In this document: positions 7,238 through 58,504 of the stretch, piece after piece
Numbering within the stretch: the stretch's first letter is position 1
Layout of the letters: each line of letters begins with the position of its first letter
DNA from: a phage
Assembly: GCA_033648345.1 (NCBI GenBank)
Contig: GCA_033648345.1_4121.1
DNA: 64,000 nt
Strand: one strand, 5' to 3'
Position numbers and translations under genes: made by a program
The notes under the pieces: generated by a model
Databases searched by the model: none
Told to the model about the DNA's origin: nothing
The model's input: only the letters and a program-made list of their open reading frames with translations

Positions 7238-7244
7238 AAGAAAA

Positions 7245-18935: not shown

Positions 18936-18954
18936 GCCAGTACTCTGTACTGGC
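18936..18954 (-). terminator. hairpin terminator
   Basis: GCCAGTAC-NNN-GTACTGGC then T-rich tract on minus strand. Confidence 0.65.
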
Positions 18955-18960
18955 ACTATA

Positions 18961-20310: not shown

Positions 20311-20320
20311 ATATTCCTCC

Positions 20321-21500: not shown

Positions 21501-21545
21501 ATTTCCTCCTTTTATTTGTTATACTATATTTAATAAAAAAGAAAA
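21501..21545 (-). promoter_or_regulatory. conserved -10-only promoter / SD cassette
   Basis: TTAAATATAGTATAACAAATAAAAGGAGGAAATATG on minus strand. Confidence 0.55.
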
Positions 21546-21579
21546 GCCAGTACAGAGTACATGCATTGTATTTCACATT

Positions 21580-22755: not shown

Positions 22756-22800
22756 ATTTCCTCCTTTATTCATTATACTATATTTAATACAAAAAGAAAT
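22756..22800 (-). promoter_or_regulatory. conserved -10-only promoter / SD cassette
   Basis: TTAAATATAGTATAATGAATAAAGGAGGAAATATG. Confidence 0.6.
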
Positions 22801-22821
22801 GCCAGTATCAAGTACTGGCAT
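22801..22821 (-). terminator. hairpin terminator (slightly degenerate)
   Basis: TGCCAGTA-tcaa-TACTGGCA. Confidence 0.5.
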
Positions 22822-22826
22822 TGTGT

Positions 22827-24006: not shown

Positions 24007-24051
24007 ATATTCCTCCTTTATTCATTATACTATATTTAATAAAAAAGAAAA
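24007..24051 (-). promoter_or_regulatory. conserved -10-only promoter / SD cassette
   Basis: TTAAATATAGTATAATGAATAAAGGAGGAATATATG. Confidence 0.6.
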
Positions 24052-24070
24052 GCCAGTACTGAGTACTGGC
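24052..24070 (-). terminator. hairpin terminator
   Basis: GCCAGTACT-c-AGTACTGGC + TTTTCTTTTTT on minus strand. Confidence 0.7.
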
Positions 24071-24076
24071 ATTATG

Positions 24077-25186: not shown

Positions 25187-25194
25187 AATTCCTC

Positions 25195-26397
25195 CTATTG
25201 TTGCCATAACTGCGTTGGCATTAATGTTAGTGTAGTAATACTATAAGTGCCATCAGGCAATCTACCACCATTACCATTCCAGCCACCACATGCATATAAT
25301 TTATAATCTTTAGTAATTATTATGGTTCTGCTCCAATCTTTAGATGCCATAAGAACATTGTCATAACCACCACTTATTGCATTAAGATTAAAAATATTCC
25401 AAGTCCTAACTAATGTATTAGTTCCATTACCTTCTTGACCGTATCCGTTAGCACCACTACTTCTAACATATGGTGCGTATTGTGCCATAGGTGCACCAAT
25501 TGATGCATTTCCCATATTACTTGGACAAATAAAAGTACTGTACTTACTTACATCAACCGTGACCGATGTGTTCCTAATTGGTGTTAGCTGATTTACCGAT
25601 GTAGTCGTACCATTACCAGCTTGTCCAGTACTGTTAGCCCCGCTATAATATACAGGCCCACCAGTAGTAAACCACCAAGTAACATCGTATGTAGTACTAA
25701 TATGTTCGACATCACTCATCACATATTTGTTCAAATATATCATAGAACTAGCACCACAACCACTTTCACCGAAGTTATCCTTACCACAAAACCATGCCTT
25801 TTTATTTGATTTAATATAGTGCGTTCCTTGTAATGAACATGCCATATGTGTAACTTCACCCATATTAGTCATAACTGTTAGTGTAGGTATGGAATTTTGA
25901 TTACCAGACCCACATTCACCATTGGTATTTCTTCCACACGCAATTACTCTACCATCGGTTAATAATATTCTAGTACTTTCACCTATATATACACTCTTGA
26001 TCATATTAGCCATAACACCAATTTTATTAAATGAAGCAGTAACATCAGTCCATGTTCTCAAATAACCATTAACAGGTGTTGCATCTCCATAATCAGAAAA
26101 TGCACCAACCGACCCAGTGTAGTATATTTTATTATCCAAATCAATCATCAATGAACCTTGAACACCAAGCCAAAAGGCTGCACATCGCGTTGCAAGTACT
26201 GTAAATGACGCAACTGCTGCTGAATTCCCAAGACCAAATTGATAAAAGTTATTACTACCATAACCATATAAAGTATTAGTTGGGCTATGTAGATACATAC
26301 AGTTTGTATAATGTTGTTGTAAAACATTTGAGAACTCTATTGGTTCTGGCCCTGGTGCAATATTCCCGAACTTAACCATCCTCGCAAAAGGTAACAT
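25195..26397 (-). CDS. RCC1-like beta-propeller repeat protein, MLPF family 8 (close paralogue of 28805-29998)
   Basis: Starts MLPFARMVKFGN; long identical runs with family 11; ends LMPTQLWQQ. Confidence 0.8.
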   Translation of the reverse strand: MLPFARMVKFGNIAPGPEPIEFSNVLQQHYTNCMYLHSPTNTLYGYGSNNFYQFGLGNSAAVASFTVLATRCAAFWLGVQGSLMIDLDNKIYYTGSVGAFSDYGDATPVNGYLRTWTDVTASFNKIGVMANMIKSVYIGESTRILLTDGRVIACGRNTNGECGSGNQNSIPTLTVMTNMGEVTHMACSLQGTHYIKSNKKAWFCGKDNFGESGCGASSMIYLNKYVMSDVEHISTTYDVTWWFTTGGPVYYSGANSTGQAGNGTTTSVNQLTPIRNTSVTVDVSKYSTFICPSNMGNASIGAPMAQYAPYVRSSGANGYGQEGNGTNTLVRTWNIFNLNAISGGYDNVLMASKDWSRTIIITKDYKLYACGGWNGNGGRLPDGTYSITTLTLMPTQLWQQ

Positions 26398-26407
26398 ATT
26401 TCTCTCC

Positions 26408-27538
26408 TTAATTTAATAATGCCCCTGGCAAATCCACTTTGACGAATTGTGCATATGCTGAGGAATTTTGATCAAAGTTTGGTCCCAATCCATAAAATGA
26501 GCTAATGCCGTCTTCATTTGTGTATATGATATAAACGTTCTTTACATCATTTCCGCATATAAATCGAATGTCTTTCGTTTGTGTTCCCGCTGGAACATTA
26601 CGAAGGCTCACAACGCCATTACTTGCATTGTTATCAGCCGACGCAATTGGTAATTGATTTTGACCATATTGACCACGCATATTTTTTGCATCTAAACCAA
26701 ACACAGTATTTGATACCGCACCAACTTTCAAAAATGAACCAAAACTATCATTGAATGACTTTGGAAATGTACCACTATAAACACTTCTCCCATCTGATAA
26801 TACCGCTGAACTGAATTTCCCGCTATTCGATATGGCAAATTCATTGTAAGGAAGTGTACCCATTTTGGTATATACAGAATATGAATTAGTGGAAGTATTA
26901 TCAATAATCTTATTACCATTATATCCAATACCATACTGGTATCCGTCTGCATCTTGAACTATACACAAAGGACCACTTGGGGTTTGTGTCAACGAAACAA
27001 CACGTTCAACTTGTATATCACCAAATGTATTTCTTCGCCATGTTCTATCTATTATAGTACTAGTATTACCCAAAGATAATGCCACACTATATAATAGATT
27101 GTTTTCAGTAAAAATGGCAACATAATATGCGTGGTTAATAACTTGCTTCATCCCAGCATCAATAACTTCCTGTGGAATATGATCAGTAACATCCAACCAA
27201 TCAAGGTTAGATGATGCAATATCTGGAGTACTGAATTTGTCAAATCTAGTTGAGCCACAAACTAGCACTCTATCATCATTTGTCAAAGCCACTGTGCTAG
27301 TCTGCATATTAGAACTGAATGATTTAACATTACTAATGTTAGACTTGTACCAACCCTTATCAGCAGCACCCACCGTGAATCCGGTTCCCATTGATCCACT
27401 TGTACTTGTACCATAAGCCCACATCTCACCACTATATGTTAGTGCCATACAGTGGCTTCCATTTGCTTGGAAATCCTTTATACCAGTGGGAGCAACCACT
27501 GTATTCCCATAATCAAACATTCTAACAAAAGGTAACAT
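26408..27538 (-). CDS. RCC1-like repeat protein, MLPF family 9
   Basis: True start MLPFVRMFDYGN at 27538. Confidence 0.75.
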   Translation of the reverse strand: MLPFVRMFDYGNTVVAPTGIKDFQANGSHCMALTYSGEMWAYGTSTSGSMGTGFTVGAADKGWYKSNISNVKSFSSNMQTSTVALTNDDRVLVCGSTRFDKFSTPDIASSNLDWLDVTDHIPQEVIDAGMKQVINHAYYVAIFTENNLLYSVALSLGNTSTIIDRTWRRNTFGDIQVERVVSLTQTPSGPLCIVQDADGYQYGIGYNGNKIIDNTSTNSYSVYTKMGTLPYNEFAISNSGKFSSAVLSDGRSVYSGTFPKSFNDSFGSFLKVGAVSNTVFGLDAKNMRGQYGQNQLPIASADNNASNGVVSLRNVPAGTQTKDIRFICGNDVKNVYIIYTNEDGISSFYGLGPNFDQNSSAYAQFVKVDLPGALLN

Positions 27539-27583
27539 AACTAAAATCTCCATATAATAATTATAATGTATTTACAAAAAAAA

Positions 27584-27609
27584 TACCAGTACGTATTTCA
27601 GTACTGGTA
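27584..27609 (-). terminator. hairpin terminator
   Basis: TACCAGTAC-8 nt-GTACTGGTA + T8 on minus strand. Confidence 0.65.
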
Positions 27610-27613
27610 TCAT

Positions 27614-28795
27614 TTATGGTAAAATGATAGATTGTAACGAACTCATACCCAATGCTGGAACACTAGCCTGTGGTGCTGGAGAATTCAATTTTGGTGATGA
27701 AACCGCATATGACATTCCTGAACCCAAATCTGGATCAAAAACTACAGCACAATAATTCCCACTATATATAAGTCCATTCTTGTATCCTTGTGCACTTTGA
27801 ATGCATTTCGTGAACGTACCAATATCTGTAGTGGCATTTATTAAGTTCCTCCCACGATAACCGCAGGTGTATATGAAATTATCATCGCCTATGTACATAC
27901 TAGAATCCCCAGAAGAACTACATAGATACGACATATAAGCACGCATGTTTTTAGGAGCAACTGACAATGTACCTGCATAGAATTTATTATTCGAACCCGT
28001 AATATCACCATCACCCAATGCACCAAAACTTCCCCAGCCAGTACCGTAATATCTCTTATCACTCAAAAATATAATACAGTTGTTATTACACATCTTGATT
28101 TGATATATCAATGAAGGATCAACCCCAGGGAATGATTCAGTGAATGTTAGAACAGCCGGATTAGTACTAGCATTACATTGATGATATGTATTAGTACCAG
28201 AGGACAAGATTGTTCCATTAGCTAACAGAATTCTCGCAGTACCAGTACCAGCAGTACAAGCAACTGCACTTCCTGCACTTCCGGTGTATATTTGTCTGAA
28301 AGTAAAGAAACCAACAGTCTTACTCCCTTGTCCACTCCAACCAGTATTATCAACACCACACGCCCATACTGAACCATCTTCCATGATCATCATTACACCA
28401 AAGCGTTCTATTGAAATATAAACAATCTTTTTAGTATCAACTGCACGAAATCTAGAAGTTATATCCGTCCAAACCTTTACACTTACCGAAGTCGCACTGG
28501 AAGTAGGATCTTCACCTGCTATCATTATCCTACCATTGTTAGTCAGATACATTGTCTGACTATAACCAGTACTACAAAACTTAACACTATCAGTCTCTGG
28601 AACTTTTAACCACTCGTTGTAACGTGTTACGTTAGTGTTATTACCTAACTGATAATAGTTATTCATCCCAGATACATATAACACACCATCCTTTATTAAA
28701 CTATAAGTCGCACTATAGTCACTACAGGTATAACGTGTACCCACAGGTCGCTCAACGACGTTCCCATAATCAAACATTCTAACAAAAGGTAACAT
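27614..28795 (-). CDS. RCC1-like beta-propeller repeat protein, MLPF family 10
   Basis: Starts MLPFVRMFDYGN; YYQLGNNTN, FGALGDGD repeats. Confidence 0.8.
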   Translation of the reverse strand: MLPFVRMFDYGNVVERPVGTRYTCSDYSATYSLIKDGVLYVSGMNNYYQLGNNTNVTRYNEWLKVPETDSVKFCSTGYSQTMYLTNNGRIMIAGEDPTSSATSVSVKVWTDITSRFRAVDTKKIVYISIERFGVMMIMEDGSVWACGVDNTGWSGQGSKTVGFFTFRQIYTGSAGSAVACTAGTGTARILLANGTILSSGTNTYHQCNASTNPAVLTFTESFPGVDPSLIYQIKMCNNNCIIFLSDKRYYGTGWGSFGALGDGDITGSNNKFYAGTLSVAPKNMRAYMSYLCSSSGDSSMYIGDDNFIYTCGYRGRNLINATTDIGTFTKCIQSAQGYKNGLIYSGNYCAVVFDPDLGSGMSYAVSSPKLNSPAPQASVPALGMSSLQSIILP

Positions 28796-28804
28796 GATTT
28801 TCTC

Positions 28805-29998
28805 CTATGATTGCCATAACTGCGTTGGCATTAATGTTAATGTTTTAATTAAGTAAGTACCATCCGGTAATTTACTACCTGAACCGTTAAAGCCCCCACA
28901 TGCATATAATTTATAATCTTTAGTTATAATTATTGTTCTGGACCAGTCTTTGGATGCCATAAGAACATTGTCATATCCACCCTGTATCGCACTTAAAGAA
29001 AACGCCCCCCACGAAGTAATTATTGTTGTATTTCCCGTCCCTTCTTGACCATATGTATTGATGCCTGCACTCCTGACATATGATGGGTATTGAGCCATAG
29101 GTGCACCAATTGTTGAGTTACCCATATTACTAGGACACAGGAAACCATCACTAATATTCACTATAACCTGTGAATTCTGAACTGTAGTTAATTGGTTTGT
29201 AGTTGAAGTAGTACCATTCCCAGCTTGTCCAGAATTGTTTCTACCACTCCAGTACACCCTACCGGCAGTAAACCACCAGGTAACATCATAAGTAGTACTT
29301 ATATAATCGACGTTGGTTCGTATTAATTTATTAGTAAAAACGTATGAGCTAGTCCCACCACCACTTTCACCAAAGTTATCCTTACCACAAAACCATGCTT
29401 CTTTATTTGTTTTGAGATAGTGCGTACCCTGTAATGAACACGCCAATTGAGAAACTTCACCCATACCAGTAACAACTGTTAGTACTGGAATGGGATTTTG
29501 GTTACCTGTTCCACATTCGGCATTTGCATTTTTACCACAAACAACGACTCTTCCATCGTGTAGTAATATTCTAGTACTTTCACCTATATGTACACTCTTG
29601 ATTAAATTAGCGTGTACATTTATTTTGTTAAATGCGGCAGTAACATCAGTCCATGTTCTAAAATAACCATTAACTGGAGTTGCATCTCCATAATCGGGGA
29701 ATGCTACTGTATTCCCTGTGAAATATATTCTATTATCCAAGTCAATCATCAATGATCCATGAACGCCTAACCAAAAGGCTGCACAGTGCGTTGCCAGTAC
29801 TGTAAAAGTTGAAACTGCCGATCGATTCCCTAGACCTAATTGGCTCAAGTTATTACCACCATAACCGTATAGTGTATTCGTGGGCTTATGTAGATACATA
29901 GCATTAGTATAATGTTGCTGTAAAACATCAGTGAACTCAACTGGATCAGGAATAGGCAGTTTATTCCCGTACTTAACCATTCTAGCAAAAGGTAACAT
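28805..29998 (-). CDS. RCC1-like beta-propeller repeat protein, MLPF family 11 (close paralogue of 25195-26397)
   Basis: Starts MLPFARMVKYGN; ends LMPTQLWQS. Confidence 0.8.
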   Translation of the reverse strand: MLPFARMVKYGNKLPIPDPVEFTDVLQQHYTNAMYLHKPTNTLYGYGGNNLSQLGLGNRSAVSTFTVLATHCAAFWLGVHGSLMIDLDNRIYFTGNTVAFPDYGDATPVNGYFRTWTDVTAAFNKINVHANLIKSVHIGESTRILLHDGRVVVCGKNANAECGTGNQNPIPVLTVVTGMGEVSQLACSLQGTHYLKTNKEAWFCGKDNFGESGGGTSSYVFTNKLIRTNVDYISTTYDVTWWFTAGRVYWSGRNNSGQAGNGTTSTTNQLTTVQNSQVIVNISDGFLCPSNMGNSTIGAPMAQYPSYVRSAGINTYGQEGTGNTTIITSWGAFSLSAIQGGYDNVLMASKDWSRTIIITKDYKLYACGGFNGSGSKLPDGTYLIKTLTLMPTQLWQS

Positions 29999-30045
29999 AA
30001 TTCCCTCCTTTATTCATTATACTATATTTAATCAAAAAGAAAAGC
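29999..30045 (-). promoter_or_regulatory. conserved -10-only promoter / SD cassette
   Basis: TTAAATATAGTATAATGAATAAAGGAGGGAATTATG. Confidence 0.6.
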
Positions 30046-30061
30046 CAGTACTCATTTAATT

Positions 30062-31207
30062 TTAACGAGGTATAACTATTTTTTTGAATAATCCAGTATT
30101 TCCTGCATTTTCTTCTTCATATGGAATTGTACCCATACCAGCAGTTCTGCCACCATTCCCTGAACCATACAGTTCTCCATTCTTAATCATGAATGTTATC
30201 ATATAACCATGTGTCATTTTATCATATGGAACTGGTTCAGTTATATTATTACATGCTCGCCATGTACTAATAACACTAGAGTTCGTTATACCATCACCTG
30301 ATGCGTTTCCTCGACCAGCGAAATACCATATCCCACCTGCTCTAACGTGTGCTTCATAATTAGAACCACCTATGTAATCAATCGCAGTACTAGGAATACT
30401 AGAAGCTGGTATCTTTGTGATTGTTCTAAGACTGTTAATAGTGCCATTAGTGCCATCACCCAACTGTCCATATATTTGTGAACCGAATACATATAGCCCA
30501 TCACTCTTTAATACGTAATTAGCACTATATGCATTTTCTGAATTTATCTGTAATACTCCAGTAGTAACAGTAGTCAATGTGGTAGTTGTACCAGTCGAAC
30601 CAATACTAGATTTTTTCCCACTGTACTTTAATGTTCCATCATTGTATAATACAAATGAAGCATTATCAGCGGTTACACCAATATCTTTAACATCAACTTC
30701 TGGTGTCAATGTCAGTACTGATACTCTTTGGTCAACAGCCCCAGTAAAAACTTCACCGTTGTTATTGTAACCCATCTTATATAATTTATTATCTATTGTT
30801 AATAATAATGTAACGCCGTTTCCTATAACTATTTTACTATATGTGTCATTCACATCATCAAAAATACCAAGTATTTCTGTCCATACACGATAAGTAGTAT
30901 TAACACCACGATAGATTTGAGCACCAGTACTCCACCATGTGCCATCATTTTTACGTACTAATATTCCGTGTGTATCACCAGTAGTCCAAAATTCCTTTAC
31001 ATCAGTTAAACATAAAACCCACTCTTCAACTATAGTAGGAGAACTACTACCAGTACCTAATTGATAGTAAAAATTATGCCCTCTGCCATATAATCTTCCG
31101 TCTTCTAATAAAATAAACACATTATTCTGTAAAACTTTTACCATCTTTATACCAACTGGCACAGGTGCTTCATTCCCACAATCGAACATTCTAACAAAAG
31201 GTAACAT
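30062..31207 (-). CDS. RCC1-like beta-propeller repeat protein, MLPF family 12
   Basis: True start MLPFVRMFDCGN at 31207; YGQLGDGTNG, YYQLGTGSS repeats. Confidence 0.8.
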   Translation of the reverse strand: MLPFVRMFDCGNEAPVPVGIKMVKVLQNNVFILLEDGRLYGRGHNFYYQLGTGSSSPTIVEEWVLCLTDVKEFWTTGDTHGILVRKNDGTWWSTGAQIYRGVNTTYRVWTEILGIFDDVNDTYSKIVIGNGVTLLLTIDNKLYKMGYNNNGEVFTGAVDQRVSVLTLTPEVDVKDIGVTADNASFVLYNDGTLKYSGKKSSIGSTGTTTTLTTVTTGVLQINSENAYSANYVLKSDGLYVFGSQIYGQLGDGTNGTINSLRTITKIPASSIPSTAIDYIGGSNYEAHVRAGGIWYFAGRGNASGDGITNSSVISTWRACNNITEPVPYDKMTHGYMITFMIKNGELYGSGNGGRTAGMGTIPYEEENAGNTGLFKKIVIPR

Positions 31208-31251
31208 ATTCCCTCCTTTATTCATTATACTATATTTAATCAAAAATAAAA
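31208..31251 (-). promoter_or_regulatory. conserved -10-only promoter / SD cassette
   Basis: TTAAATATAGTATAATGAATAAAGGAGGGAATATG. Confidence 0.6.
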
Positions 31252-31270
31252 GCCAGTACAGAGTACTGGC
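31252..31270 (-). terminator. hairpin terminator
   Basis: GCCAGTAC-tct-GTACTGGC + T-rich tract (minus strand). Confidence 0.7.
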
Positions 31271-31277
31271 ATAGTAT

Positions 31278-32405
31278 TCAAAAAGGTAAATCAATTTGCT
31301 TAGTAATAATAGTATCTAACGGTATTGAACACAATGAGAAATTCTTTCCACCCGTATTTTTAGGATTATATCCATTCATCCATACATTATTACCTTCGTA
31401 AAATGTATTCCAGTATAAAGACCCACTATATCGTGTATTCGAATTGAACGATGTAAAATTGAATTCTTGAAATGCTGTAAAATATGGAAGGGAACTTGAA
31501 CTACTTCCCGTAAATGGGGTATGCCCAGTTGCTATTAGTTTGTTTGTATCTGCATTAATTAAAAATACAACACTAGTCGAATAGTCCAACGAATCAGGAT
31601 GATATATATTACTCATATCACCTATAGTAAAACCAACATCAAAAACTTTAATATGTGCACCACTACCAGCAAAAGTAGTTCCAGTTGCATATATTTTATT
31701 ATCAGATGTTATCATTACAAAACCAACACCAGAAACAAAACAGCATTTTATATCATAAGATATATCATCAAACAACGGAACAAATGTGGTTGCATCACCC
31801 GATGTTGCTTTAACTTGAAAGCTGTTATTTGAACCTGAACCATATACAGTTCCATCGTTTTTAATCTTAAACACTGTATCACCAAGGTAACCGCCAAATA
31901 TATTATCCACATTAGTGTCAAGTACAGTCCACGCTGAAACATAATTTTTATGTCCTAAACCTAATGCACCACTTCGATTCCATCCTCTTCCATAAAGTGT
32001 TCCGTCTTTCATTAATATAAATGCTGTATAACCACATAACATTTTTTTAATTTGGGTAACATCTATACCAGTGAAATACACAGCCCAGTCAGTATATCCT
32101 TGTTGGAAAGTATTAGAATTCGTGAATGCATATGTTGAACCTGAACCATATATTTTATCACCTTTAATAACAACGGAAAACGATCCTAACCATAAGTCAT
32201 CAACTTCAGTTGTGATTTGTTGAACTGCTCCTAACGATACAAACTGTGTACTTAAACCCGCATTATAGTTTGAATCTTCACCGTGTGCATATACAGTGCC
32301 ATCTTGCATTAGAAACATTTCAAGAGTGTAACTAACAACACTTTTCTTTATATTATTAACTTCGATTATATTCCCATAATCAAACATTCTAACAAAAGGT
32401 AACAT
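31278..32405 (-). CDS. RCC1-like repeat protein, MLPF family 13
   Basis: Starts MLPFVRMFDYGN; SGALGLGHKN repeat. Confidence 0.75.
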   Translation of the reverse strand: MLPFVRMFDYGNIIEVNNIKKSVVSYTLEMFLMQDGTVYAHGEDSNYNAGLSTQFVSLGAVQQITTEVDDLWLGSFSVVIKGDKIYGSGSTYAFTNSNTFQQGYTDWAVYFTGIDVTQIKKMLCGYTAFILMKDGTLYGRGWNRSGALGLGHKNYVSAWTVLDTNVDNIFGGYLGDTVFKIKNDGTVYGSGSNNSFQVKATSGDATTFVPLFDDISYDIKCCFVSGVGFVMITSDNKIYATGTTFAGSGAHIKVFDVGFTIGDMSNIYHPDSLDYSTSVVFLINADTNKLIATGHTPFTGSSSSSLPYFTAFQEFNFTSFNSNTRYSGSLYWNTFYEGNNVWMNGYNPKNTGGKNFSLCSIPLDTIITKQIDLPF

Positions 32406-32449
32406 AATTCCCTCCTTTATTCATTATACTTTATTTAATACAAATAAGA
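32406..32449 (-). promoter_or_regulatory. conserved -10-only promoter / SD cassette
   Basis: TTAAATAAAGTATAATGAATAAAGGAGGGAATTATG. Confidence 0.6.
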
Positions 32450-32477
32450 ATTCCTGTATCGAGTACTGGCATTCAAT

Positions 32478-33626
32478 TTATTGTAAAAAGGACATATCTA
32501 CTTCTGTATAACTAAGAATGTTTTGACCAGCAATTCCACCCATTACTACTATTGCATACCCACAATAATATAATTTCCCAGTGTCCGTAAGTATAAGTGA
32601 ACCAGAAGGTGTTCTTACCAAATTACACGAACTATTAAAAGAAGTATACGAAGGAGTATAGGAGTACTGATTAATATTATTACCAACACCTAATTGACCA
32701 CCCCTATTCGAACCAGATGCATAAAGTACTTCATCTGCTTTGACAATATGTGATGCCATGTTAGCAACACATGCATATACACCATATACCCCTGTACTCA
32801 ATAATGTAGGAGTCTTGTATTGAATATCAGTACTAGTAGATGTTCCACCTGTGCCAAATTCATTACCATATTGTGCTCCGTACTGCTTCCCACATGCGTA
32901 CAAATTATTATCCGATTTGATAAAAAATGTACTCTGATAACTTACATCAAAATCTATAACATCCGAAGAAATCATCGTTACCCCAGTAATCGAAGTTTGA
33001 TTACCAGTACCCAACTGGTAGTAATAGTTAAAACCACAACCCCATAAAGTATTATCTTCTCGCAAATAAATGTTACCAACAGCCTTTTTAACAGATGTTA
33101 TAGTACTGACCTTCTTGAATGTATTAAATGAATCAATGTTAGTACCATCTCCAAAGGAGGATATGTTCGATGCGTTATTAGCACCACAACAATATAATGT
33201 CCCATCCTTCAGTACTAAATTTACCTTCATATCATTAAAACTGCTCATGTACTCAATATCAGATACACTAATACCACCTGATGTTATCCACGTAGTACAG
33301 TCCGTCCATAACGTCTTCCTATCAGTTACCCCAGTAAATGCCTTCGTGTTACCAGTGATAAACACTTTACCAGTACCCTTTTCTTCATACAATTGACAAT
33401 CACTACTGTTATCTTCCAATAAAACCCTCTGTACATTCTCTGCACAAAGAATAAATTTACTCGATGCTACACCTGTTCCAGTACCCCAATTCGTCGCAGA
33501 AGATGCATACAACTTATGTGTTAGTGTATCATGCAAATACATAGAACCACTAGAATATATTTTAAAACGCCCTTCTTTCTCAGGTATAATATTCCCATAA
33601 TCAAACATTCTAACAAAAGGTAACAT
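32478..33626 (-). CDS. RCC1-like beta-propeller repeat protein, MLPF family 14
   Basis: True start MLPFVRMFDYGN at 33626 (the track's MNKGGN prefix is the SD); YYQLGTGNQ, GGQLGVGNN repeats. Confidence 0.8.
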   Translation of the reverse strand: MLPFVRMFDYGNIIPEKEGRFKIYSSGSMYLHDTLTHKLYASSATNWGTGTGVASSKFILCAENVQRVLLEDNSSDCQLYEEKGTGKVFITGNTKAFTGVTDRKTLWTDCTTWITSGGISVSDIEYMSSFNDMKVNLVLKDGTLYCCGANNASNISSFGDGTNIDSFNTFKKVSTITSVKKAVGNIYLREDNTLWGCGFNYYYQLGTGNQTSITGVTMISSDVIDFDVSYQSTFFIKSDNNLYACGKQYGAQYGNEFGTGGTSTSTDIQYKTPTLLSTGVYGVYACVANMASHIVKADEVLYASGSNRGGQLGVGNNINQYSYTPSYTSFNSSCNLVRTPSGSLILTDTGKLYYCGYAIVVMGGIAGQNILSYTEVDMSFLQ

Positions 33627-33671
33627 ATTCCCTCCCTTATTCATTATACTATATTTAATACAAATAAGAAA
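33627..33671 (-). promoter_or_regulatory. conserved -10-only promoter / SD cassette
   Basis: TTAAATATAGTATAATGAATAAGGGAGGGAATATG. Confidence 0.6.
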
Positions 33672-33690
33672 GCCAGTACAGAGTACTGGC
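33672..33690 (-). terminator. hairpin terminator
   Basis: GCCAGTAC-tct-GTACTGGC (minus strand). Confidence 0.7.
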
Positions 33691-33697
33691 CTATCAA

Positions 33698-34864
33698 TTA
33701 CGAAAAACGTGGATCATCAAGAACAAACACTGTACTACTTGGACCACCTTGTGTGGTGACAGCACTAGTACTGTAAAGAAAGTTACCATCCGTCATATAA
33801 GTTCTACGATTCGTACAAATAACTCTTACTTTATTCATATCGATATCAGGATTAGGTAATGGACATGAAGTATACACTGATACATCAGTACTTGTTCCTA
33901 TCCCCAGCGTACCTTCATTTGTGGTTGAACCGCTATTCAACCCACTAGCATATATACCACTGCTTGTAATAACAAAAGTGGCGTAGAATGGAGAACCTTC
34001 ACCTATATTTAATTTAGTTCCAGGTGGTTGTCTTGCCGCAGCAACCGCACCATATGCTTTCCCACCAGATGTGGCAAGATTACCAAGAGCACCATACTGT
34101 TGTTGTCCACCATTATACACTGTGTTAGTGCCATCACTGTTAGTGTGGATACCAATAGAATTATAGTTACTGTTGCTATATACTAACGCGGTATTCGAAG
34201 TAACTGTATTTCGTGTATATACTTTATATTGTTGGGTAAAATTACCACTAGTGGACGTACCCTGTACAGTTCCAGTGTAGTATATATATCCGTCTGTACC
34301 AATGAATGAGTGCATAACACTACCTGCAAAAATTTTTTCGGGAGTAACACCTGACGGTATTGTTGATTGTACAAATCTACCCACTACATTTGTTGTTGTA
34401 TTATTTCCCAATTGACCGGAGTCACCATAACCACTTGACCATATGGTATTGTTCTCAAGAAGAACACTAATTGATAATCTTGATAAAGCTATTTCTTTAA
34501 CATCACTTTCTAATGTATCAAAAAATGAAGTACAATTTGTCCAAGTGTTCACTACGCTAGAACTAACACCAATTTGTTTATTATCACCAGAACTATAATA
34601 ATTCCCATCATATGTTTGTATAAGTATAACAGAACTACCAACCCATACTTTATCAACTGAACCAAACGTTCTTGTCCATGTGGTAACTATATCCCCGCTA
34701 TTATTACCCAATCCAAAGCAACCACTACTATCTACACCTCGTACATATAAATCTCCTGAAGTCATCAGAACTGCACAGAATGATTGTGCACCTTTAACAT
34801 CTTTAATTGGCTCTGGTTCAGGTGCAACATTCCCATAATCAAACATTCTAACAAAAGGTAACAT
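33698..34864 (-). CDS. RCC1-like beta-propeller repeat protein, MLPF family 15
   Basis: True start MLPFVRMFDYGN at 34864; SGQLGNNTTTN, YGALGNLATSG repeats. Confidence 0.8.
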   Translation of the reverse strand: MLPFVRMFDYGNVAPEPEPIKDVKGAQSFCAVLMTSGDLYVRGVDSSGCFGLGNNSGDIVTTWTRTFGSVDKVWVGSSVILIQTYDGNYYSSGDNKQIGVSSSVVNTWTNCTSFFDTLESDVKEIALSRLSISVLLENNTIWSSGYGDSGQLGNNTTTNVVGRFVQSTIPSGVTPEKIFAGSVMHSFIGTDGYIYYTGTVQGTSTSGNFTQQYKVYTRNTVTSNTALVYSNSNYNSIGIHTNSDGTNTVYNGGQQQYGALGNLATSGGKAYGAVAAARQPPGTKLNIGEGSPFYATFVITSSGIYASGLNSGSTTNEGTLGIGTSTDVSVYTSCPLPNPDIDMNKVRVICTNRRTYMTDGNFLYSTSAVTTQGGPSSTVFVLDDPRFS

Positions 34865-34966
34865 ATTTCCTCCTTTATTCATTATATCATATTTACCCCA
34901 TAAACAAAACCCTTGACAACCTTCCAGTACTGATGTACTATAGAAGGAATATAAGGAGAACTACAC
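34865..34966. promoter_or_regulatory. divergent control region between the RCC1 array and the small-protein array
   Basis: Minus: TATAATGAATAAAGGAGG cassette; plus: TTGACA(34913)-N17-TACTAT(34936), AAGGAG RBS. Confidence 0.6.
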
Positions 34967-35194
34967 ATGACAAATACTCTTAAGTACTACCTCAATACTC
35001 TAAATGAACTAGAGTACGCGAAGTTTCTCGCGGATAGTTCGTGGCTAATTGAGCTAAAAACACATAACAGTACTGGATGTAACCTTATGCTGAACAATGC
35101 ACTTGATACCCTTGTAGTGAGTATTTTACACAGCACCATCTGCGGGGATAGCAATAAACAATTATCAAAAATCTTAGTACTGGTAGCTCTATGA
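34967..35194 (+). CDS. small Tyr-rich protein, tandem family (divergent member)
   Basis: 75 aa; first gene of array, AAGGAG RBS. Confidence 0.6.
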   Translation: MTNTLKYYLNTLNELEYAKFLADSSWLIELKTHNSTGCNLMLNNALDTLVVSILHSTICGDSNKQLSKILVLVAL

Positions 35195-41990: not shown

Positions 41991-42081
41991 GAAAGTACTT
42001 GCAAACTAAGTTTAACGGCGTATAATGTTTTACATCGAGAGCGGGAACACTTCCCGCTACATATTACGAGAGATTAAAACG
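41985..42081 (+). promoter_or_regulatory. promoter + 5' stem-loop cassette (PeSL-like, class AGTACTTGCA)
   Basis: AGTACTTGCAA..TATAATGTTTTACATC; hairpin GCGGGAA-cac-TTCCCGC. Confidence 0.7.
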
Positions 42082-43215: not shown

Positions 43216-43446
43216 ATGACTAATATGTATATGACTGAAGTTAAAACCGTAAAAGATACTACCACGAATAAAACTACTTACTTACAGCGGATCTGCGGTG
43301 TATGGCAACGTATCAGCAAATCAAAGTACTTTAAATTAACATCATATGCAAACCGTTCGGATTCATTCAGTACTGAAATAAAAGGTAATAAAGTACACCA
43401 ATACGGCACTTATTATTATTATAGCCTGGACGCGATTGCAGTATAA
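43216..43446 (+). CDS. hypothetical protein
   Basis: 76-aa ORF, GGAG RBS. Confidence 0.7.
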   Translation: MTNMYMTEVKTVKDTTTNKTTYLQRICGVWQRISKSKYFKLTSYANRSDSFSTEIKGNKVHQYGTYYYYSLDAIAV

Positions 43447-43693: not shown

Positions 43694-43728
43694 ACTTGCA
43701 AACTATGTTTAAAGGCGTATAATGTTTT
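43694..43728 (+). promoter_or_regulatory. class AGTACTTGCA promoter driving the 75-nt structured element
   Basis: AGTACTTGCAA..GGCGTATAAT(43718-43723)GTTTTAC. Confidence 0.65.
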
Positions 43729-43806
43729 ACATCAGGACGGGGAACGAAATAAGTAACTCCCCGTTAAGTAGCCCAGGAGTAAGGCACACGAAAAACTCCC
43801 CTGATA
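43729..43806 (+). ncRNA. candidate structured leader / small RNA, copy 1
   Basis: ATCAGG..CCTGAT closing stem; ACGGGGA..TCCCCGT hairpin; GGAG-TAAGGCACACGAAAAA-CTCC hairpin. Confidence 0.45.
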
Positions 43807-43873
43807 AAATAGTTTGACAAATGTTTTTAAAAGCGTATAATACTTACATCAACTACTGAATGAGGGTTACAAA
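43807..43873 (+). promoter_or_regulatory. second (proximal) promoter, leader CATCAACTACTGA
   Basis: TTGACA(43814)-N16-TATAAT(43836); GAGGG RBS. Confidence 0.6.
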
Positions 43874-44485
43874 ATGAAAACTATCACTACTACTACTTTC
43901 GTTATGGATTTTTCTGAATTGAACGCAGAACAAAAAACGTCAGCTATCGAACTGGTTCGGGAACGTGAAAAAAACTCAAACGACAATTATTTTTCTGAAA
44001 GTGAAATTGAATACTATAAAGAAACAGTACTACCGGAATATGGCATTAATGACGCTGAAATACAATTCAGTGGTTTTTGGTCCCAGGGTGACGGTGCATC
44101 AATCAGTACTGACCACGTTGACGGTGTGAAGTTTTTACGCAAGGTAAGAGCATTAACTAAGTATCGCTCAATCCGTCACTTGCTGAATGAAGATGATTTG
44201 GCGATGAGTGTAAAGCGTTCTCATTCTTTGTACTTGCATGAGAATACTGTAAGCGGGTACATTGAATCGGCTTACACTGATTTAACCGCAAAACAAGAAA
44301 CGTTAGTTAATGAGCTTGAGGAACTACTCACTGAAACTATTCGTGAATTATCCCGCAAGTTGTACCGTGATTTAGAGAATGCATATGAGGATCAATTCAC
44401 TACTGAAAACATCGTATCACTGATTGAGGGTAACGAATATCAATTCAATGTTATTGATGGCGTAGTAGAATCAATCGAATATTAA
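43874..44485 (+). CDS. hypothetical protein
   Basis: 203-aa ORF; FSGFWSQGDGA motif, function not recognised. Confidence 0.8.
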   Translation: MKTITTTTFVMDFSELNAEQKTSAIELVREREKNSNDNYFSESEIEYYKETVLPEYGINDAEIQFSGFWSQGDGASISTDHVDGVKFLRKVRALTKYRSIRHLLNEDDLAMSVKRSHSLYLHENTVSGYIESAYTDLTAKQETLVNELEELLTETIRELSRKLYRDLENAYEDQFTTENIVSLIEGNEYQFNVIDGVVESIEY

Positions 44486-45134: not shown

Positions 45135-45222
45135 AAAAAAGTACTTGCAATTAGTTTTCAGTACTGTATAATAGTTTACATCAAGTGGAGAAATGGTTCT
45201 CCCTGGTAATGAGGAAAATAAA
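45135..45222 (+). promoter_or_regulatory. promoter + 5' stem-loop cassette
   Basis: AGTACTTGCAA..CAGTACTGTATAAT; hairpin GGAGAA-atgg-TTCTCC. Confidence 0.7.
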
Positions 45223-46566: not shown

Positions 46567-46590
46567 AGCCCACCTGGTGGGCTTTTTTGT
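46567..46590 (+). terminator. intrinsic terminator
   Basis: AGCCCAC-ctg-GTGGGCT + T6. Confidence 0.8.
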
Positions 46591-46642: not shown

Positions 46643-46670
46643 TTGACATTACCGCAGAAAAGCGTAGAAT
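46643..46670 (+). promoter_or_regulatory. sigma70-like promoter
   Basis: TTGACA-N16-TAGAAT. Confidence 0.6.
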
Positions 46671-46675
46671 GTATT

Positions 46676-46750
46676 ACATCAAGACGGGGAGCACTAAGTA
46701 GACCGCCAGTAAGTCGAACGAAAAACTGGACACGTCGAGAAAACTTTGAT
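46676..46750 (+). ncRNA. candidate structured leader, copy 3 (diverged, covarying)
   Basis: ATCAA..TTGAT closing stem; GACG..CGTC; CCAG-TAAGTCGAACGAAAAA-CTGG. Confidence 0.45.
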
Positions 46751-46793: not shown

Positions 46794-47276
46794 ATGGCTA
46801 ATGTAAAATCATTCATCAAAGCACTGGTAGCAAATGAAACTAACGTCGCGGCAGAGATCCTGGCTGAACTGGATAACGATACCATGAAAGCGGTACGCAA
46901 TAATTTTAACATCGCGTACAGTACTGCGAAAGAACTACAAGCAAATAAAGCAGCAGAGATCGAGGCAGCAAAGGCGGCCCGTGAAGCAGAACTACAAGCA
47001 ACAATTGAAAGTATTCAGGCGGCAGTAGTTGGATTGGATCTGGAAGTAGTTACAGAGATGGCACAAAAAGCCCTGGCGAAAAAGTACGGGGAAGACAAGC
47101 CAGAAGTAAAAGCCAAAAAATGGATTCAAGAACGTGTAGCGGTAGTACTTGATAATGGGGAAGAATATCTGATTCCGGTGCGTGGTAACTGCATTGCTGT
47201 AGTACTGGATGCGATTAACTCCAGCGGTATGACTCGCGAGGAATGGATCGAAGCTCATCGCAAAGTGGAAGCATAA
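46794..47276 (+). CDS. hypothetical coiled-coil-like protein
   Basis: ATG 46794 (MANVKSF) after GAGGA; Ala/Glu/Lys-rich centre. Confidence 0.75.
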   Translation: MANVKSFIKALVANETNVAAEILAELDNDTMKAVRNNFNIAYSTAKELQANKAAEIEAAKAAREAELQATIESIQAAVVGLDLEVVTEMAQKALAKKYGEDKPEVKAKKWIQERVAVVLDNGEEYLIPVRGNCIAVVLDAINSSGMTREEWIEAHRKVEA

Positions 47277-47297: not shown

Positions 47298-47324
47298 AGC
47301 CCACTGTATAAGTGGGCTTTTTTG
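47298..47324 (+). terminator. intrinsic terminator
   Basis: AGCCCAC-tgtataa-GTGGGCT + T6. Confidence 0.8.
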
Positions 47325-48086: not shown

Positions 48087-48230
48087 ATGAAAACTTGTCA
48101 ATGTGGTCAGAAATCTATTACGGGTTTAAAGCGGGGCGTTGCTCTTTGCCAGTACCATTATAATTTACAAGTATGGGGTAAAGAATGGGCCGACCAGGTG
48201 GAAGCAGCAAAGAAAGCAAAAAGTAAGTAA
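48087..48230 (+). CDS. small Cys-rich protein (47 aa, not in track)
   Basis: MKTCQCGQKS...CQYHYN; AAGGAA RBS. Confidence 0.6.
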   Translation: MKTCQCGQKSITGLKRGVALCQYHYNLQVWGKEWADQVEAAKKAKSK

Positions 48231-48311
48231 AAATATTATCACAGTACTATTGACATAGTTTGATAGTACTGGCATAATAGATTTTATCAAGACAACTAAG
48301 AGGAAACAATA
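48231..48311 (+). promoter_or_regulatory. promoter class AGTACTATTGACA..AGTACTGGCATAAT (copy 1 of exact repeat)
   Basis: By eye identical over about 85 bp to 48525-48605. Confidence 0.7.
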
Positions 48312-48524
48312 ATGGCTATCATCACAAAAATCAAAGTAAACAAATCACTGGTTAAGCTGGAAGAAGTGAAAGAAGGTTATAAAGTATCGTGGTGCGGCAT
48401 GTATCGGATTTTTACAGATGTTGACGATGCAATCAATTACTACACTGACACGGTAAAAAACTTTGTTCGTGCTGATGTGGTTATGGCAGTGGCAACACAC
48501 AAAGCATCGAAAGAAAGTAAGTAA
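48312..48524 (+). CDS. hypothetical protein
   Basis: 70-aa ORF, GAGGAA RBS. Confidence 0.7.
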   Translation: MAIITKIKVNKSLVKLEEVKEGYKVSWCGMYRIFTDVDDAINYYTDTVKNFVRADVVMAVATHKASKESK

Positions 48525-48605
48525 AAATATTATCACAGTACTATTGACATAGTTTGATAGTACTGGCATAATAGATTTTATCAAGACAACTAAGAGGAAA
48601 TTAAA
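48525..48605 (+). promoter_or_regulatory. promoter class AGTACTATTGACA..AGTACTGGCATAAT (copy 2 of exact repeat)
   Basis: The repeat includes the last codons AGTAAGTAA of the upstream gene. Confidence 0.7.
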
Positions 48606-49908: not shown

Positions 49909-50055
49909 ATGAAAGCATCAAAAAAGAGTAATACTAAGAAAGCACGTTCACCTTTCGCTGGGGTATTCCCTTTACGTTTCGTTGATGAAGTGGTTTCCTA
50001 CCCGCCGGGCCTTACTCCTGAGATGGTAGAAAGTTTGCGTAAATCTAAAAAATAG
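49909..50055 (+). CDS. hypothetical small basic protein (48 aa, not in track)
   Basis: MKASKKSNTKKARS...; AAGGAA RBS. Confidence 0.55.
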   Translation: MKASKKSNTKKARSPFAGVFPLRFVDEVVSYPPGLTPEMVESLRKSKK

Positions 50056-50136
50056 TACTTGCAATTAGTTTTTAAACGCGTATAATGTTTTACATAGAGG
50101 GGAGAAATGGTTCTCCCCAATAACAGGAGAATCAAA
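50056..50136 (+). promoter_or_regulatory. promoter + 5' stem-loop cassette
   Basis: Near-duplicate of the 49825 cassette; hairpin GGGGAGAA-atgg-TTCTCCCC. Confidence 0.7.
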
Positions 50137-50375: not shown

Positions 50376-50510
50376 ATGAATCCTAACGGTTTAATTTACA
50401 GTACTCCTAAAACGAAAGCAGATAAAGCGAAAGCACGTAAAGCGAAAGTAAAGGAGTACATTAAGCAAGGCATGACGCGAAAGGCGGCAGTACTGAAAGC
50501 TAAAAAATAA
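50376..50510 (+). CDS. possible 44-aa Lys-rich peptide
   Basis: MNPNGLIYSTPKTKADKAKARKAKVKEY...; TAAATG junction. Confidence 0.4.
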   Translation: MNPNGLIYSTPKTKADKAKARKAKVKEYIKQGMTRKAAVLKAKK

Positions 50511-50520
50511 ATGAAAAAAG

Positions 50521-50552
50521 TGGTTGACTTCGGTCAGCCATTTTGCTATTAT
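50521..50552 (+). promoter_or_regulatory. UUCG hairpin terminator with embedded -35 and downstream -10
   Basis: TGGTTGAC-TTCG-GTCAGCCA; TATTAT 50547-50552. Confidence 0.7.
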
Positions 50553-54362: not shown

Positions 54363-54508
54363 AAGAATTCTTATTTGAAGTAGTGTTTCAAGGTGTCGGC
54401 AATAACCAACTGATTCGATCAAGTGGTTATAATGTTAACCAGGCATGGAATAACATTAAACAAATGTACCCGAACGCTATCACATATCGCAACCCGAAAG
54501 AAGTTTAA
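54359..54508 (+). CDS. hypothetical small protein (49 aa, not in track)
   Basis: ATGA overlap; MKEFLFEVVFQGVGNNQ... Confidence 0.5.
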   Translation: MKEFLFEVVFQGVGNNQLIRSSGYNVNQAWNNIKQMYPNAITYRNPKEV

Positions 54509-54522
54509 AAATAATTGAAAAA

Positions 54523-54555
54523 GGGATTGACTCCGGTCAGTCCCTTTGCTATTAT
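54523..54555 (+). promoter_or_regulatory. UCCG hairpin terminator with embedded -35 and downstream -10
   Basis: GGGATTGAC-TCCG-GTCAGTCCC; TATTAT 54550-54555. Confidence 0.7.
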
Positions 54556-54615: not shown

Positions 54616-54688
54616 CTAGTACTATCAAGTACTGAAAACTATTTTTAAAAAGTACTTGCAAAGTATCACGATAAGCGTATAATGTTTT

Positions 54689-54763
54689 ACATCAGGACGG
54701 GGAACGAAACAAGTAACCCCGTTAAGTAGTCCAGGAGTAAGACATACGAAAAACTCCCCTGAT
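54689..54763 (+). ncRNA. candidate structured leader / small RNA, copy 2
   Basis: Near-identical to copy 1 with a few substitutions and a 1-nt deletion that keeps ACGGGG..CCCCGT paired. Confidence 0.45.
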
Positions 54764-54832
54764 AAAATAGTTTGACAATAGAAAGTAAACGAGTATAATA
54801 CTTACATCAACCACTGATAAGGAAACATTAAA
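54764..54832 (+). promoter_or_regulatory. proximal promoter, leader CATCAACCACTGA
   Basis: TAGTTTGACAATAG..GAGTATAATACTTACATCAACCACTGATAAGGAAA. Confidence 0.6.
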
Positions 54833-55108
54833 ATGCGGATTCTACTGACAGCTAACGAAATCGAACAAGTACTGACTACTAACCTGGAAGACTGGAAACG
54901 TGAAGCAGATATCCAGGCGGTTCAATGGCTTAACGATAAGTTAACGCCGGATGACTTAAGCAAGATTGTAGATCCTCAATTCTACGAAGATATTCACGAC
55001 ACCGCGTTAAGCGTCGAGGATGTACTTGATAAGCACTACATTGATACTGATTTACATGTTTACGGTCGTAAAAACTTTATCACTATTCACGACATTTACA
55101 ATACTTAA
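54833..55108 (+). CDS. hypothetical protein
   Basis: 91-aa ORF. Confidence 0.75.
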   Translation: MRILLTANEIEQVLTTNLEDWKREADIQAVQWLNDKLTPDDLSKIVDPQFYEDIHDTALSVEDVLDKHYIDTDLHVYGRKNFITIHDIYNT

Positions 55109-57785: not shown

Positions 57786-57800
57786 AAAAAGATTAAAAAA

Positions 57801-57833
57801 GGGATTGACTCCGGTCAGTCCCTTTGCTATTAT
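57801..57833 (+). promoter_or_regulatory. UCCG hairpin terminator with embedded -35 and downstream -10
   Basis: GGGATTGAC-TCCG-GTCAGTCCC; TATTAT 57828-57833. Confidence 0.7.
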
Positions 57834-58008: not shown

Positions 58009-58416
58009 ATGACTACTACTAATCAAGCTCGGTCCATCGCCAACGATAAAAATCATGCTGCAATGGTCGCTGGTTACATTGAAGCTATGCAATTCAGTAC
58101 TGTACACAATGAGAACGGCGAATACCTGGAAGATTATGAATTATCAGAGCAAGCCCATCAAGCGGCAGTGATTGCATGTTCACGTTTCCTTGCTGTACAT
58201 GGTGAAGATATGGAAACAGTACAAAAACACCATAATCCTGATTATACTTATAGTCATGCAGGTCATGATCTCTTTCTTACTCGCGAAGGTCACGGCACTG
58301 GTTTTTGGGATCGTGATATCGGTCACTATGATGATATATTCACTAAGTACTGCGAAGAAATCAACGTTTGCGATCCCTATGTAGGCGATGATAATCTAAT
58401 CTATATGGGCGAATAA
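58009..58416 (+). CDS. hypothetical protein
   Basis: ATG 58009 (MTTTNQ); AGHDLFLTREGHGTGFWDRD motif, function not recognised. Confidence 0.75.
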   Translation: MTTTNQARSIANDKNHAAMVAGYIEAMQFSTVHNENGEYLEDYELSEQAHQAAVIACSRFLAVHGEDMETVQKHHNPDYTYSHAGHDLFLTREGHGTGFWDRDIGHYDDIFTKYCEEINVCDPYVGDDNLIYMGE

Positions 58417-58504
58417 AAGTATTTGACAAAGTATATCAGTACTGTATAATAGTTTACATCAAGGGGAGAATAGTTCTCCCCCACCAATAAAAGGAAACAA
58501 AATT
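58417..58504 (+). promoter_or_regulatory. promoter + 5' stem-loop cassette (TTGACA class)
   Basis: TTTGACAAAGTATATCAGTACTGTATAAT; hairpin GGGGAGAA-tag-TTCTCCCC. Confidence 0.7.

Follow-up and report, generated by a model that had tools for sequence, protein, structure and literature searches.

Three copies of one element in a jumbo phage early region

The stretch of DNA analysed here, hereafter the window, comprises 64,000 nucleotides (nt) of the phage contig GCA_033648345.1_4121.1 (NCBI GenBank assembly GCA_033648345.1) and belongs to a region that is 91-97% identical to the ~350-kb Asteriusvirus jumbo coliphages (PBECO4, 121Q, phAPEC6 and others). From ~40.6 kb onward the window holds the early region, in which at least 22 near-identical sigma-70 promoter cassettes are each followed by a simple 5' hairpin, and behind three promoters of this region are placed the three copies of an element, spanning 73-75 nt, which is the subject of this study. 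An original prediction, made from the letters of the window, had described it as a structured leader or small RNA repeated three times with compensatory changes in its stems. Here, we report that the element is, with near certainty, a conserved RNA which folds as the sense strand and lies at the 5' end of early phage transcripts made by host sigma-70 RNA polymerase and that, rather than a local three-copy repeat, it is a member of a widespread family that includes bacteriophage T7.

The three repeated copies are present as described. A degenerate form of the core, TAAGTAGNCCNNNAGTAAGNCNNACGAAAAACT, occurs three times in the window with 0 mismatches, against 0.00 occurrences expected from 100 shuffles, and R1, a covariance model of the core, when scanned without filters across the entire window, recovers exactly three sites (43763-43802, 46693-46732 and 54721-54760; 50-55 bits, E ~1e-11), the next-best match reaching 7.8 bits; R1 detects no further diverged copies at the remaining early promoters, at least 22 in number. 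Copies 1 and 2 fold as they had been drawn, with a closing stem (P1) around two hairpins (P2 and P3), and are more stable than shuffled controls (z = -3.0 and -2.8; Table 1). Copy 3 retains UAAGUAG and the loop, with CCAGU/ACUGG replacing GGAGU/ACUCC, and taken alone it is no more stable than shuffles (z = -0.4); its minimum free energy (MFE) fold still has GACG/CGUC and CCAGU/ACUGG. The former pairing had been read as a substitute for the first hairpin, a hairpin that is not found in copy 3, where GACG/CGUC is part of the closing stem instead. Since both copies start with AUCA(G/A)GACGGGGA, copy 3 looks like copy 1 deprived of the 3' half of its first hairpin.

Each copy had been thought to start at the ACATC of a strong promoter; the element proper begins 2 bases later, at the A of ATC (43731, 46678 and 54691). 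These bases, the first of the closing stem in each copy, are also the predicted transcription starts (A43731, A46678 and A54691), located through the -10/+1 geometry shared with promoter A1 of T7 (start annotated at nt 498, ATCGAG), and P1 beginning at this putative +1 leaves the 5' terminus paired in all three copies. A 31-codon open reading frame (43722-43817) begins upstream of the position so assigned to copy 1.

A covarying core shared with T7 and other phages

The core of the element is composed of the single-stranded UAAGUAG, 3-4 nt, the 5-bp hairpin P3 and its loop of 14-17 nt, (A)UAAG-N-C-NN-ACGAA(A/C)A. In the all-type core alignment (27 sequences) the bases that never change are AAGUAG, the C two bases on, and AAG-N-C and ACGAA of the loop, and the invariant unpaired bases number ~25. 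In the same alignment, by contrast with these bases, 5 of the 5 P3 pairs have changed on both sides, as in GCCUG/CAGGC, ACCUG/CAGGU, GCUUG/CAAGC, UCCUG/CAGGA, CCAG/CUGG, GGAG/CUCC and UCAAC/GUUGA, and 94.8% of the cells are paired, as against 7-49% in controls with slid partners and a level reached by 0 of 500 shuffles. Such covariation counts ignore phylogeny, and many of the T7-like sequences considered below are closely related, a relatedness that the slid-partner control preserves.

The link with T7 came from an unexpected blastn match of copy 3 to Yersinia phage phiA1122 (nt 553-587), between the early promoters A1 and A2. In T7, R1 gives 60.5 bits at nt 549-589, also between A1 and A2, which the RefSeq record annotates at 498 and 626 with nothing in the interval, and nt 536-595 correspond to a covarying pseudoknotted RNA. 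In the T7-like phages the hairpin P2 immediately precedes UAAGUAG and its loop is complementary to the 5-6 nt just after P3, with which it makes an H-type pseudoknot. In the model-based alignment of these phages (63 sites, 45 of them distinct) P2, pseudoknot and P3 together have 94.1% of the cells paired (16-36% in slid controls; 0 of 500 shuffles as high) and 10 of the 15 pairs show double changes (P2 3/4, pseudoknot 5/6); the fitting of alignment A5, which took in P2 and P3 but not the pseudoknot, biases the support for those two helices upward. A MAFFT alignment of the T7-like sites agrees with the model-based one, and a separate tally counts 16 P2 stems and ~8 pseudoknot pairings that differ from one another, among the latter GUCAA/UUGAC, GUCAUC/GAUGAC, GUCAC/GUGAC, GUCGG/CCGAC, GAUUAG/CUAAUC and GCUAA/UUAGC.

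In T7 and most of its relatives the 3' strand of the pseudoknot doubles as the -35 of A2, and in T7 a ACGAAAAAC tract is found at about -50 to -42 of A2, two features that would suit an element acting on the second promoter at the DNA level, as UP element or operator. We disfavour this explanation, which we regard as highly improbable. The distance between the core and the next -35 ranges from 2 nt (T7) through ~14 (window copies 1 and 2) and ~20 (Kayfunavirus) to ~42 (Munch), and this variable spacing excludes a simple DNA-level upstream element; moreover, no strong promoter follows copy 3. The helices covary also where the 3' strand is not a promoter hexamer (GAUGAC, CUAAUC, UUAGC, ACCGAC), so that the pseudoknot pairing is not a by-product of the A2 -35. 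Finally, G-U pairs are frequent (10/45 at the outer P3 pair) and correspond to A-C mismatches on the opposite strand; being strand-specific, they show that it is the sense RNA that folds.

In the jumbo phages and in the 140-kb myoviruses a closing stem takes the place of the pseudoknot, either in a three-way junction or in a minimal form without P2 (Table 1). Independent MFE folds of the elements of Munch, L111, Hallingskeid, EJP2, JNE01, muut and A7_1 all contain the closing stem and P3, and the closing stems of the minimal form (GACG/CGUC with AUCAA/UUGAU, CAGG.CG/CG.CCUG and AUCAA..CG/CG..UUGAU) covary among sequences that include JNE01, 121Q, EJP2 and Hallingskeid. Homologues of the window copies are thus abundant and covarying, in agreement with the structured RNA with compensatory stem changes originally proposed, and of the outcomes named as refuting that proposal, none that can be computed was observed.

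Invariant unpaired bases amid variable, covarying helices suggest an RNA surface recognised by something, and we take this pattern as the probable signature of some partner. A riboswitch-like aptamer sensing a metabolite or an ion, or a small self-cleaving ribozyme, would also have variable stems around invariant junction and loop bases, and the interchangeable pseudoknot and three-way-junction forms would be compatible with it. Such an RNA is nevertheless very unlikely here: an expression platform is lacking, as no U-tract terminator follows any copy and in longer folds the element makes no pairs with the Shine-Dalgarno (SD) sequence, the downstream genes show no metabolic association, and no riboswitch or ribozyme family of Rfam matched the T7-like loci or copy 1, even at permissive E values of up to 5-10.

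The family is large. With the A1-A2 interval of phiA1122 as query, 583 phage records were matched. The podophage carriers inspected belong to Teseptimavirus (T7, 13a), Kayfunavirus (Peacock, ST45), Melnykvirinae (Kosakonia Kc318), Cronosvirus and a set of 43-kb Klebsiella phages, together with Pantoea phage LIMEzero (Waewaevirus) and the Vibrio cholerae phages N4 and ICP3. The jumbo carriers are Asteriusvirus and a second group consisting of Salmonella Munch, 7t3, PHA46 and Klebsiella fENko-Kae01, and Erwinia phage Hallingskeid also has the element, as do muut, outra and A7_1, myoviruses of 137-146 kb; Justusliebigvirus and Vequintavirinae are among the carriers. The hosts include the genera Escherichia, Klebsiella, Yersinia, Erwinia, Pantoea and Vibrio, and the common factor of the carriers is early transcription by a gamma-proteobacterial host polymerase. 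Justusliebigvirus muut possesses the entire copy-2 module, i.e., element, second promoter and 91-codon gene, which indicates that the module has probably moved horizontally.

Pattern scans found the element in 26-58 viral contigs and 18 metagenome contigs; a fixed-spacing scan of the viral contigs gave no matches because the T7-type spacing was off by 1-2 nt, and looser patterns yielded many chance matches, which were screened by structure. In 185,579 species genomes scanned by pattern only one contig, of a metagenome-assembled genome, was retrieved, with a T7-like sequence, and blastn of copy 1 against 5,426 Escherichia coli genomes gave no match. Some divergent sequences were also observed. 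In Escherichia phage CMSTMSU (L276, 433-465), whose record is marked UNVERIFIED, P3 is cut to 3 bp by deletions on both strands; a metagenome copy (L232, 8608-8647) has UGAGUAG in place of UAAGUAG; and in the A2-A3 interval of T7 (L285, ~645-715) a sequence that R1 does not score, GUCAACCGG ... CAUAAGGUGAAACAAAACGG-UUGACA, resembles a decayed duplicate of the A1-A2 element.

The Rfam scan suggested with the original prediction matched no family in the window (Rfam 15, gathering score) or in the homologous loci. In full-text literature, searched also with exact T7 strings, only uses of the region as a template were found, and older T7 work in subscription journals may describe the element. The RNA family, large as it is and with T7 as its best-known carrier, is apparently undescribed. 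Among the other identities considered, mimicry of ribosomal RNA had been suggested by visual inspection (P3 loop against 16S nt 59-76, linker and P3 against 16S nt 869-885), but the likeness is at chance level and was ruled out, R1 giving 11.1 bits on an rrn operon and six variants aligning no better than shuffled sequences. A resemblance to ToxI, to the pistol ribozyme or to the sarcin-ricin loop was considered and judged unconvincing; as regards a ToxI-like type III antitoxin, the window has no tandem array of ~36 nt, the copies being single and kilobases apart, and the neighbouring genes have no Pfam or PHROGs toxin match.

Table 1. Element copies, promoters and neighbouring genes in the window, and closing forms of the element among the phages.
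Feature	Position or carrier	Strand	Details
Copy 1, whole element	43731..43805	+	MFE -22.3 kcal/mol, z -3.0; R1 50.5 bits
Copy 1, P1	43731-43736 with 43800-43805	+	AUCAGG/CCUGAU
Copy 1, P2	43737-43743 with 43758-43764	+	ACGGGG(A)/(U)CCCCGU
Copy 1, linker UAAGUAG	43765-43771	+	
Copy 1, P3	43776-43780 with 43795-43799	+	GGAG(U)/(A)CUCC; conserved loop 43781-43794
Copy 1, first promoter	43696..43723	+	TTGCAA-16-TATAAT; predicted +1 A43731
Copy 1, second promoter	43814..43841	+	TTGACA-16-TATAAT, 12/12; between element and gene 43874-44485
Gene after copy 1	43874-44485		phrog_5162, family of unknown function
Copy 2, whole element	54691..54763	+	MFE -20.5 kcal/mol, z -2.8; R1 54.9 bits
Copy 2, P1	54691-54696 with 54758-54763	+	
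Copy 2, P2	54697-54702 with 54717-54722	+	
Copy 2, UAAGUAG	54723-54729	+	
Copy 2, P3	54734-54738 with 54753-54757	+	
Copy 2, first promoter	54656..54683	+	TTGCAA-16-TATAAT; predicted +1 A54691; terminator 54520-54547 before
Copy 2, second promoter	54772..54799	+	TTGACA-16-TATAAT, 12/12; before gene 54833-55108
Gene after copy 2	54833-55108		91 codons; phrog_14947, family of unknown function
Copy 3, minimal form without P2	46678..46750	+	R1 51.1 bits
Copy 3, outer closing stem	46678-46682 with 46746-46750	+	AUCAA/UUGAU
Copy 3, inner closing stem	46683-46686 with 46733-46736	+	GACG/CGUC
Copy 3, UAAGUAG	46695-46701	+	
Copy 3, P3	46706-46710 with 46725-46729	+	CCAGU/ACUGG
Copy 3, promoter	46643..46670	+	TTGACA-16-TAGAAT; predicted +1 A46678; terminator 46567-46583 before
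Gene led directly by copy 3	46794-47276		followed by terminator 47298-47318
Pseudoknot form	T7-like phages		separate 5' hairpin before, +2 to +36 (T7 499-533)
Three-way junction, stem from +1	window copies 1 and 2, muut, outra, A7_1, 121Q		AUCAGG/CCUGAU
Three-way junction	Munch and relatives		CGGC/GCCG; GCGGC/GUCGC
Minimal form without P2	copy 3, 121Q, JNE01, EJP2, Hallingskeid		closing stems vary yet are kept

Early transcription and candidate functions

The element is always found at most ~110 nt from a sigma-70 early start, at +1 in the window and at +39 to +98 in T7. The order promoter, element, second promoter, with no terminator between, is nearly universal, as it is seen in T7 (A1/A2), N4 and ICP3 (TTGACT-17-TAAGAT), LIMEzero (801-847/928-974), window copies 1 and 2, Munch and Hallingskeid. 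The second promoter noticed past copies 1 and 2 is a perfect consensus in both cases, and copy 3 is indeed the direct leader of its gene; in copy 3 and EJP2, both direct leaders, only weak promoter-like remnants follow the element and no strong second promoter is present. In the T7-like phages the element follows the first promoter entering the cell. The downstream genes are unrelated, encoding ocr or a SAM hydrolase in the T7-like phages and members of three different PHROGs of unknown function in the window, where a Pfam search of the genes downstream of the copies gave no domain above threshold. A further early signal is seen in 45 loci of T7-like phages, which carry an rrn-type boxA (GCTCTTTAACAA) downstream from their early promoters (813-824 in T7, L285; 794-805 in L002; 4167-4178 in L058), 15-250 nt past the element (15-30 nt in L058 and LIMEzero), whereas in the window boxA (up to 2 mismatches) was not found beyond chance nor near the copies.

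In records that include both terminal repeats, the query of copies 1 and 2 matches four places and that of copy 3 two, which puts all three copies inside the direct terminal repeat and implies six per genome. Copy 1 corresponds to nt 3726 of OQ718158, a record beginning at the terminal repeat, and thus the physical left end of the genome would be at window position ~40,004.

Other features of the window were noted along with the element. The cassettes at 40664-60881 (e.g., 41992-42059, 45138-45205, 50052-50119 and 58416-58483) carry at least 22 sigma-70 promoters AAAGTACTTGCAA..TATAATGTTTTACATC, each with the 5' hairpin GGGGAGAAAUGGUUCUCCCC at ~+6, then the SD and an ATG. Their initial transcribed sequence, AUCGAGAGGG, is identical to that of T7 A1, and for this reason whole promoter-leader cassettes seem to be common to jumbo phages and T7. 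Directly upstream of copy 1, a leftward promoter-like site on the minus strand (43649-43621; TTGACA-17-CATAAT with TG), aimed at the end of the open reading frame 43216-43446 and kept at the equivalent place in Salmonella phage Munch (L003, ~2215-2250), may be the source of an antisense or divergent transcript. Terminator-promoter fusions, GGTTGACTTCGGTCAACC-TTTTT-G(T/C)TATAAT, in which the -35 TTGACT of the next promoter lies within the terminator stem, are located at 218-262, 3812-3856, 6547-6591, 7229-7273, 11592-11636, 12136-12180, 12476-12520, 50505-50549, 54508-54552, 57786-57830 and 60237-60281. An exact direct repeat of 68 nt with a TTGACA-17-CATAAT promoter occurs at 48228-48295 and 48522-48589, 294 nt apart, and on the minus strand of ~17000-35000 there are ~12 tandem paralogous units with a period of ~1.2 kb, having in common the gene starts (reverse complement of ..AAAAGGTAACAT) and the upstream regions (repeat families D4, D6-D11).

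The function of the element is put forward here as a proposal only, and each of the three possibilities originally listed, a cis-regulatory leader, a processed stable RNA and a protein-binding decoy, could apply. The least favoured of them is the classical cis-regulatory leader, since a second promoter usually intervenes and, in T7, RNase III removes the leader. As a leader of the messenger RNA, the element would stabilise the downstream early gene or tune its translation, the 5' structure blocking decay that depends on the 5' end, possibly with the aid of a host protein. A 5' hairpin is the classical design of the ompA-type stabilisers, and the 5' end base-paired from +1 in the window, the simple 5' hairpin at +6 of all the other early promoters (at least 22) and the position of copy 3 directly before gene 46794-47276 are what this explanation would predict. 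A plain hairpin, however, suffices for stabilisation and leaves ~25 invariant unpaired bases unexplained; in addition, the T7-like phages have a separate 5' hairpin before the element, the consensus promoter after copies 1 and 2 produces element-free messages, and the downstream genes have nothing in common. On balance, we consider this function unlikely.

The near-identical core in otherwise unrelated phages, and the absence after the element of a terminator or of a platform sequestering the SD, with a second promoter usually found there, point to a target in the host machinery. We infer that what the invariant unpaired surface binds is a core component found in enterobacterial and Vibrio hosts alike. 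Our best guess, a tentative one drawn by analogy, is an action in cis on the elongating host RNA polymerase, similar to that of the put RNA of phage HK022, suggested by the position of the element, the lack of an expression platform and its portability. In this mechanism, the ~25 invariant unpaired bases would be the docking surface for a core host component used by all these otherwise unrelated phages, most likely the transcribing RNA polymerase or elongation complex itself; the RNA would fold on leaving the polymerase and remain bound to it, and the bound enzyme would resist pausing, backtracking, Rho or terminators, as occurs with put. Only the polymerases starting from the first promoter of the tandem pair would be modified. 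In T7, RNase III cleavage at R0.3 separates the leader from the message, so the element cannot act on that message in cis, which also suits this view.

Several observations weigh against such an action on the polymerase. Likeness to put in sequence or structure is absent (R1 at most 7.4 bits on HK022), and no terminator is located between copy 1 or copy 2 and the next promoter. The early transcription of T7 stops at TE, which a strong antiterminator in the A1 leader would override, and the T7-like phages already have an rrn-type boxA downstream. Furthermore, the transcripts of A2 and A3, or of the second promoters of the window, do not contain the element, and those second promoters are closer to consensus.

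The main rival, only slightly less likely in our view and as tentative, is a stable small RNA acting in trans as a decoy or sponge and produced from a dedicated first promoter. With its ends tucked in P1 or in the pseudoknot it would be shielded from RppH/RNase E and from 3' exonucleases, and it would be released when the AU-rich spacer is cut, or through RNase III acting at R0.3 in the case of T7; the target proposed is a conserved RNA-binding protein or RNase of the host, such as Rho, RNase E, Hfq or ProQ, and, less likely, a defence protein, a strain-specific version of which is at odds with near-universal conservation across phages of the host genera listed above. The almost universal promoter-element-promoter order is what a dedicated transcription unit would require, but copy 3 and EJP2, as direct leaders without a strong second promoter, depart from it. 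In the jumbo phages a closing stem pairing +1..+6 with the last 6 nt makes the RNA a self-contained domain, although its 3' end has neither a defining terminator nor a recognisable processing site. Likewise, strong first promoters and six copies per genome through the terminal repeats would favour accumulation, yet the short early phase would allow a modest copy number compared with abundant proteins such as Hfq and CsrA. The invariance of the unpaired bases is expected also of a decoy.

Considering the element as a whole, it is quite plausible, although short of probable, that it represents an unrecognised class of host-directed regulatory RNA, residing in the A1 leader of T7 and transferred horizontally between podophages of the T7 type, jumbo phages and myoviruses like rV5. 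The same core in phages having little in common but the use of a gamma-proteobacterial polymerase points to a general, portable strategy for handling the host machinery early in infection. If the put-like action on the polymerase proves true, the element may be an RNA-only modifier of the elongation complex, the third class after put and EAR; alternatively, it could act in trans and, within minutes of the start of infection, neutralise a core factor of the host. Existing assays would allow a direct test of the hypothesis in T7, and a new class of RNA polymerase-binding RNA and a new host-factor decoy are among the possible outcomes. Few genomes have been studied as closely as that of T7, and transcription biochemistry uses its A1 region as a standard template; the element is also relevant to many in vitro and synthetic-biology constructs containing the sequence downstream of A1.

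Comparison with known RNA elements

Like the curated Rfam families (EAR, riboswitches, small ribozymes, phage non-coding RNAs), the element has the architecture supported by covariation that is typical of such a family. With the riboswitches it shares a conserved core with covarying stems and differs in that the expression platform was not found. With the ompA-type stabilisers, and with the cassettes of the window itself, the likeness is the 5' end paired from +1, and P2 (ACGGGGA/UCCCCGU in copies 1 and 2) is similar to the generic hairpin GGGGAG..CUCCCC that recurs at +6 behind at least 22 other promoters of the window. These generic hairpins, however, are devoid of UAAGUAG and P3, whereas the element has unpaired bases that do not vary; in T7 the paired 5' terminus is provided by another hairpin (499-533), with the element lying behind it.

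The nut sites of lambda and the rrn leaders (boxA and boxB) are also signals carried by the nascent RNA in early leaders. The 3' half of the P3 loop (GAAAAA) bears a superficial similarity to the boxB loop; the P3 loop is of 14-17 nt with its own conserved sequence and not a GNRA-like pentaloop as in boxB. The carrier phages have no known N protein, and the distance of boxA is variable in the T7-like phages; obligatory coupling to boxA was ruled out, the window being without it.

The most instructive comparison is with put of HK022, a cis-acting RNA that binds the beta' zinc-binding domain of RNA polymerase and suppresses termination and pausing. Put is an RNA of ~70 nt with two stems that needs only the host RNA polymerase, with no phage protein, and acts on the polymerase that made it, putL being at +3 after PL and putR 270 nt after PR (PMC9378689). 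The window element is similar in size (73-75 nt), in having P2 and P3 enclosed by P1 and in its position just after a sigma-70 early promoter, the element being at +1 in the window and at +39 in T7; portability and independence from the gene that follows are common to the two. Homology was rejected: there is no similarity in sequence or structure, the element being a pseudoknot or a three-way junction with a large conserved loop, and the best match of R1, which tests the core motif only and is not a put model, on the complete HK022 genome with filters off was of 7.4 bits (E = 2.2). Put would thus be the closest functional analogue of the element, in an analogy that concerns possible action and not membership.
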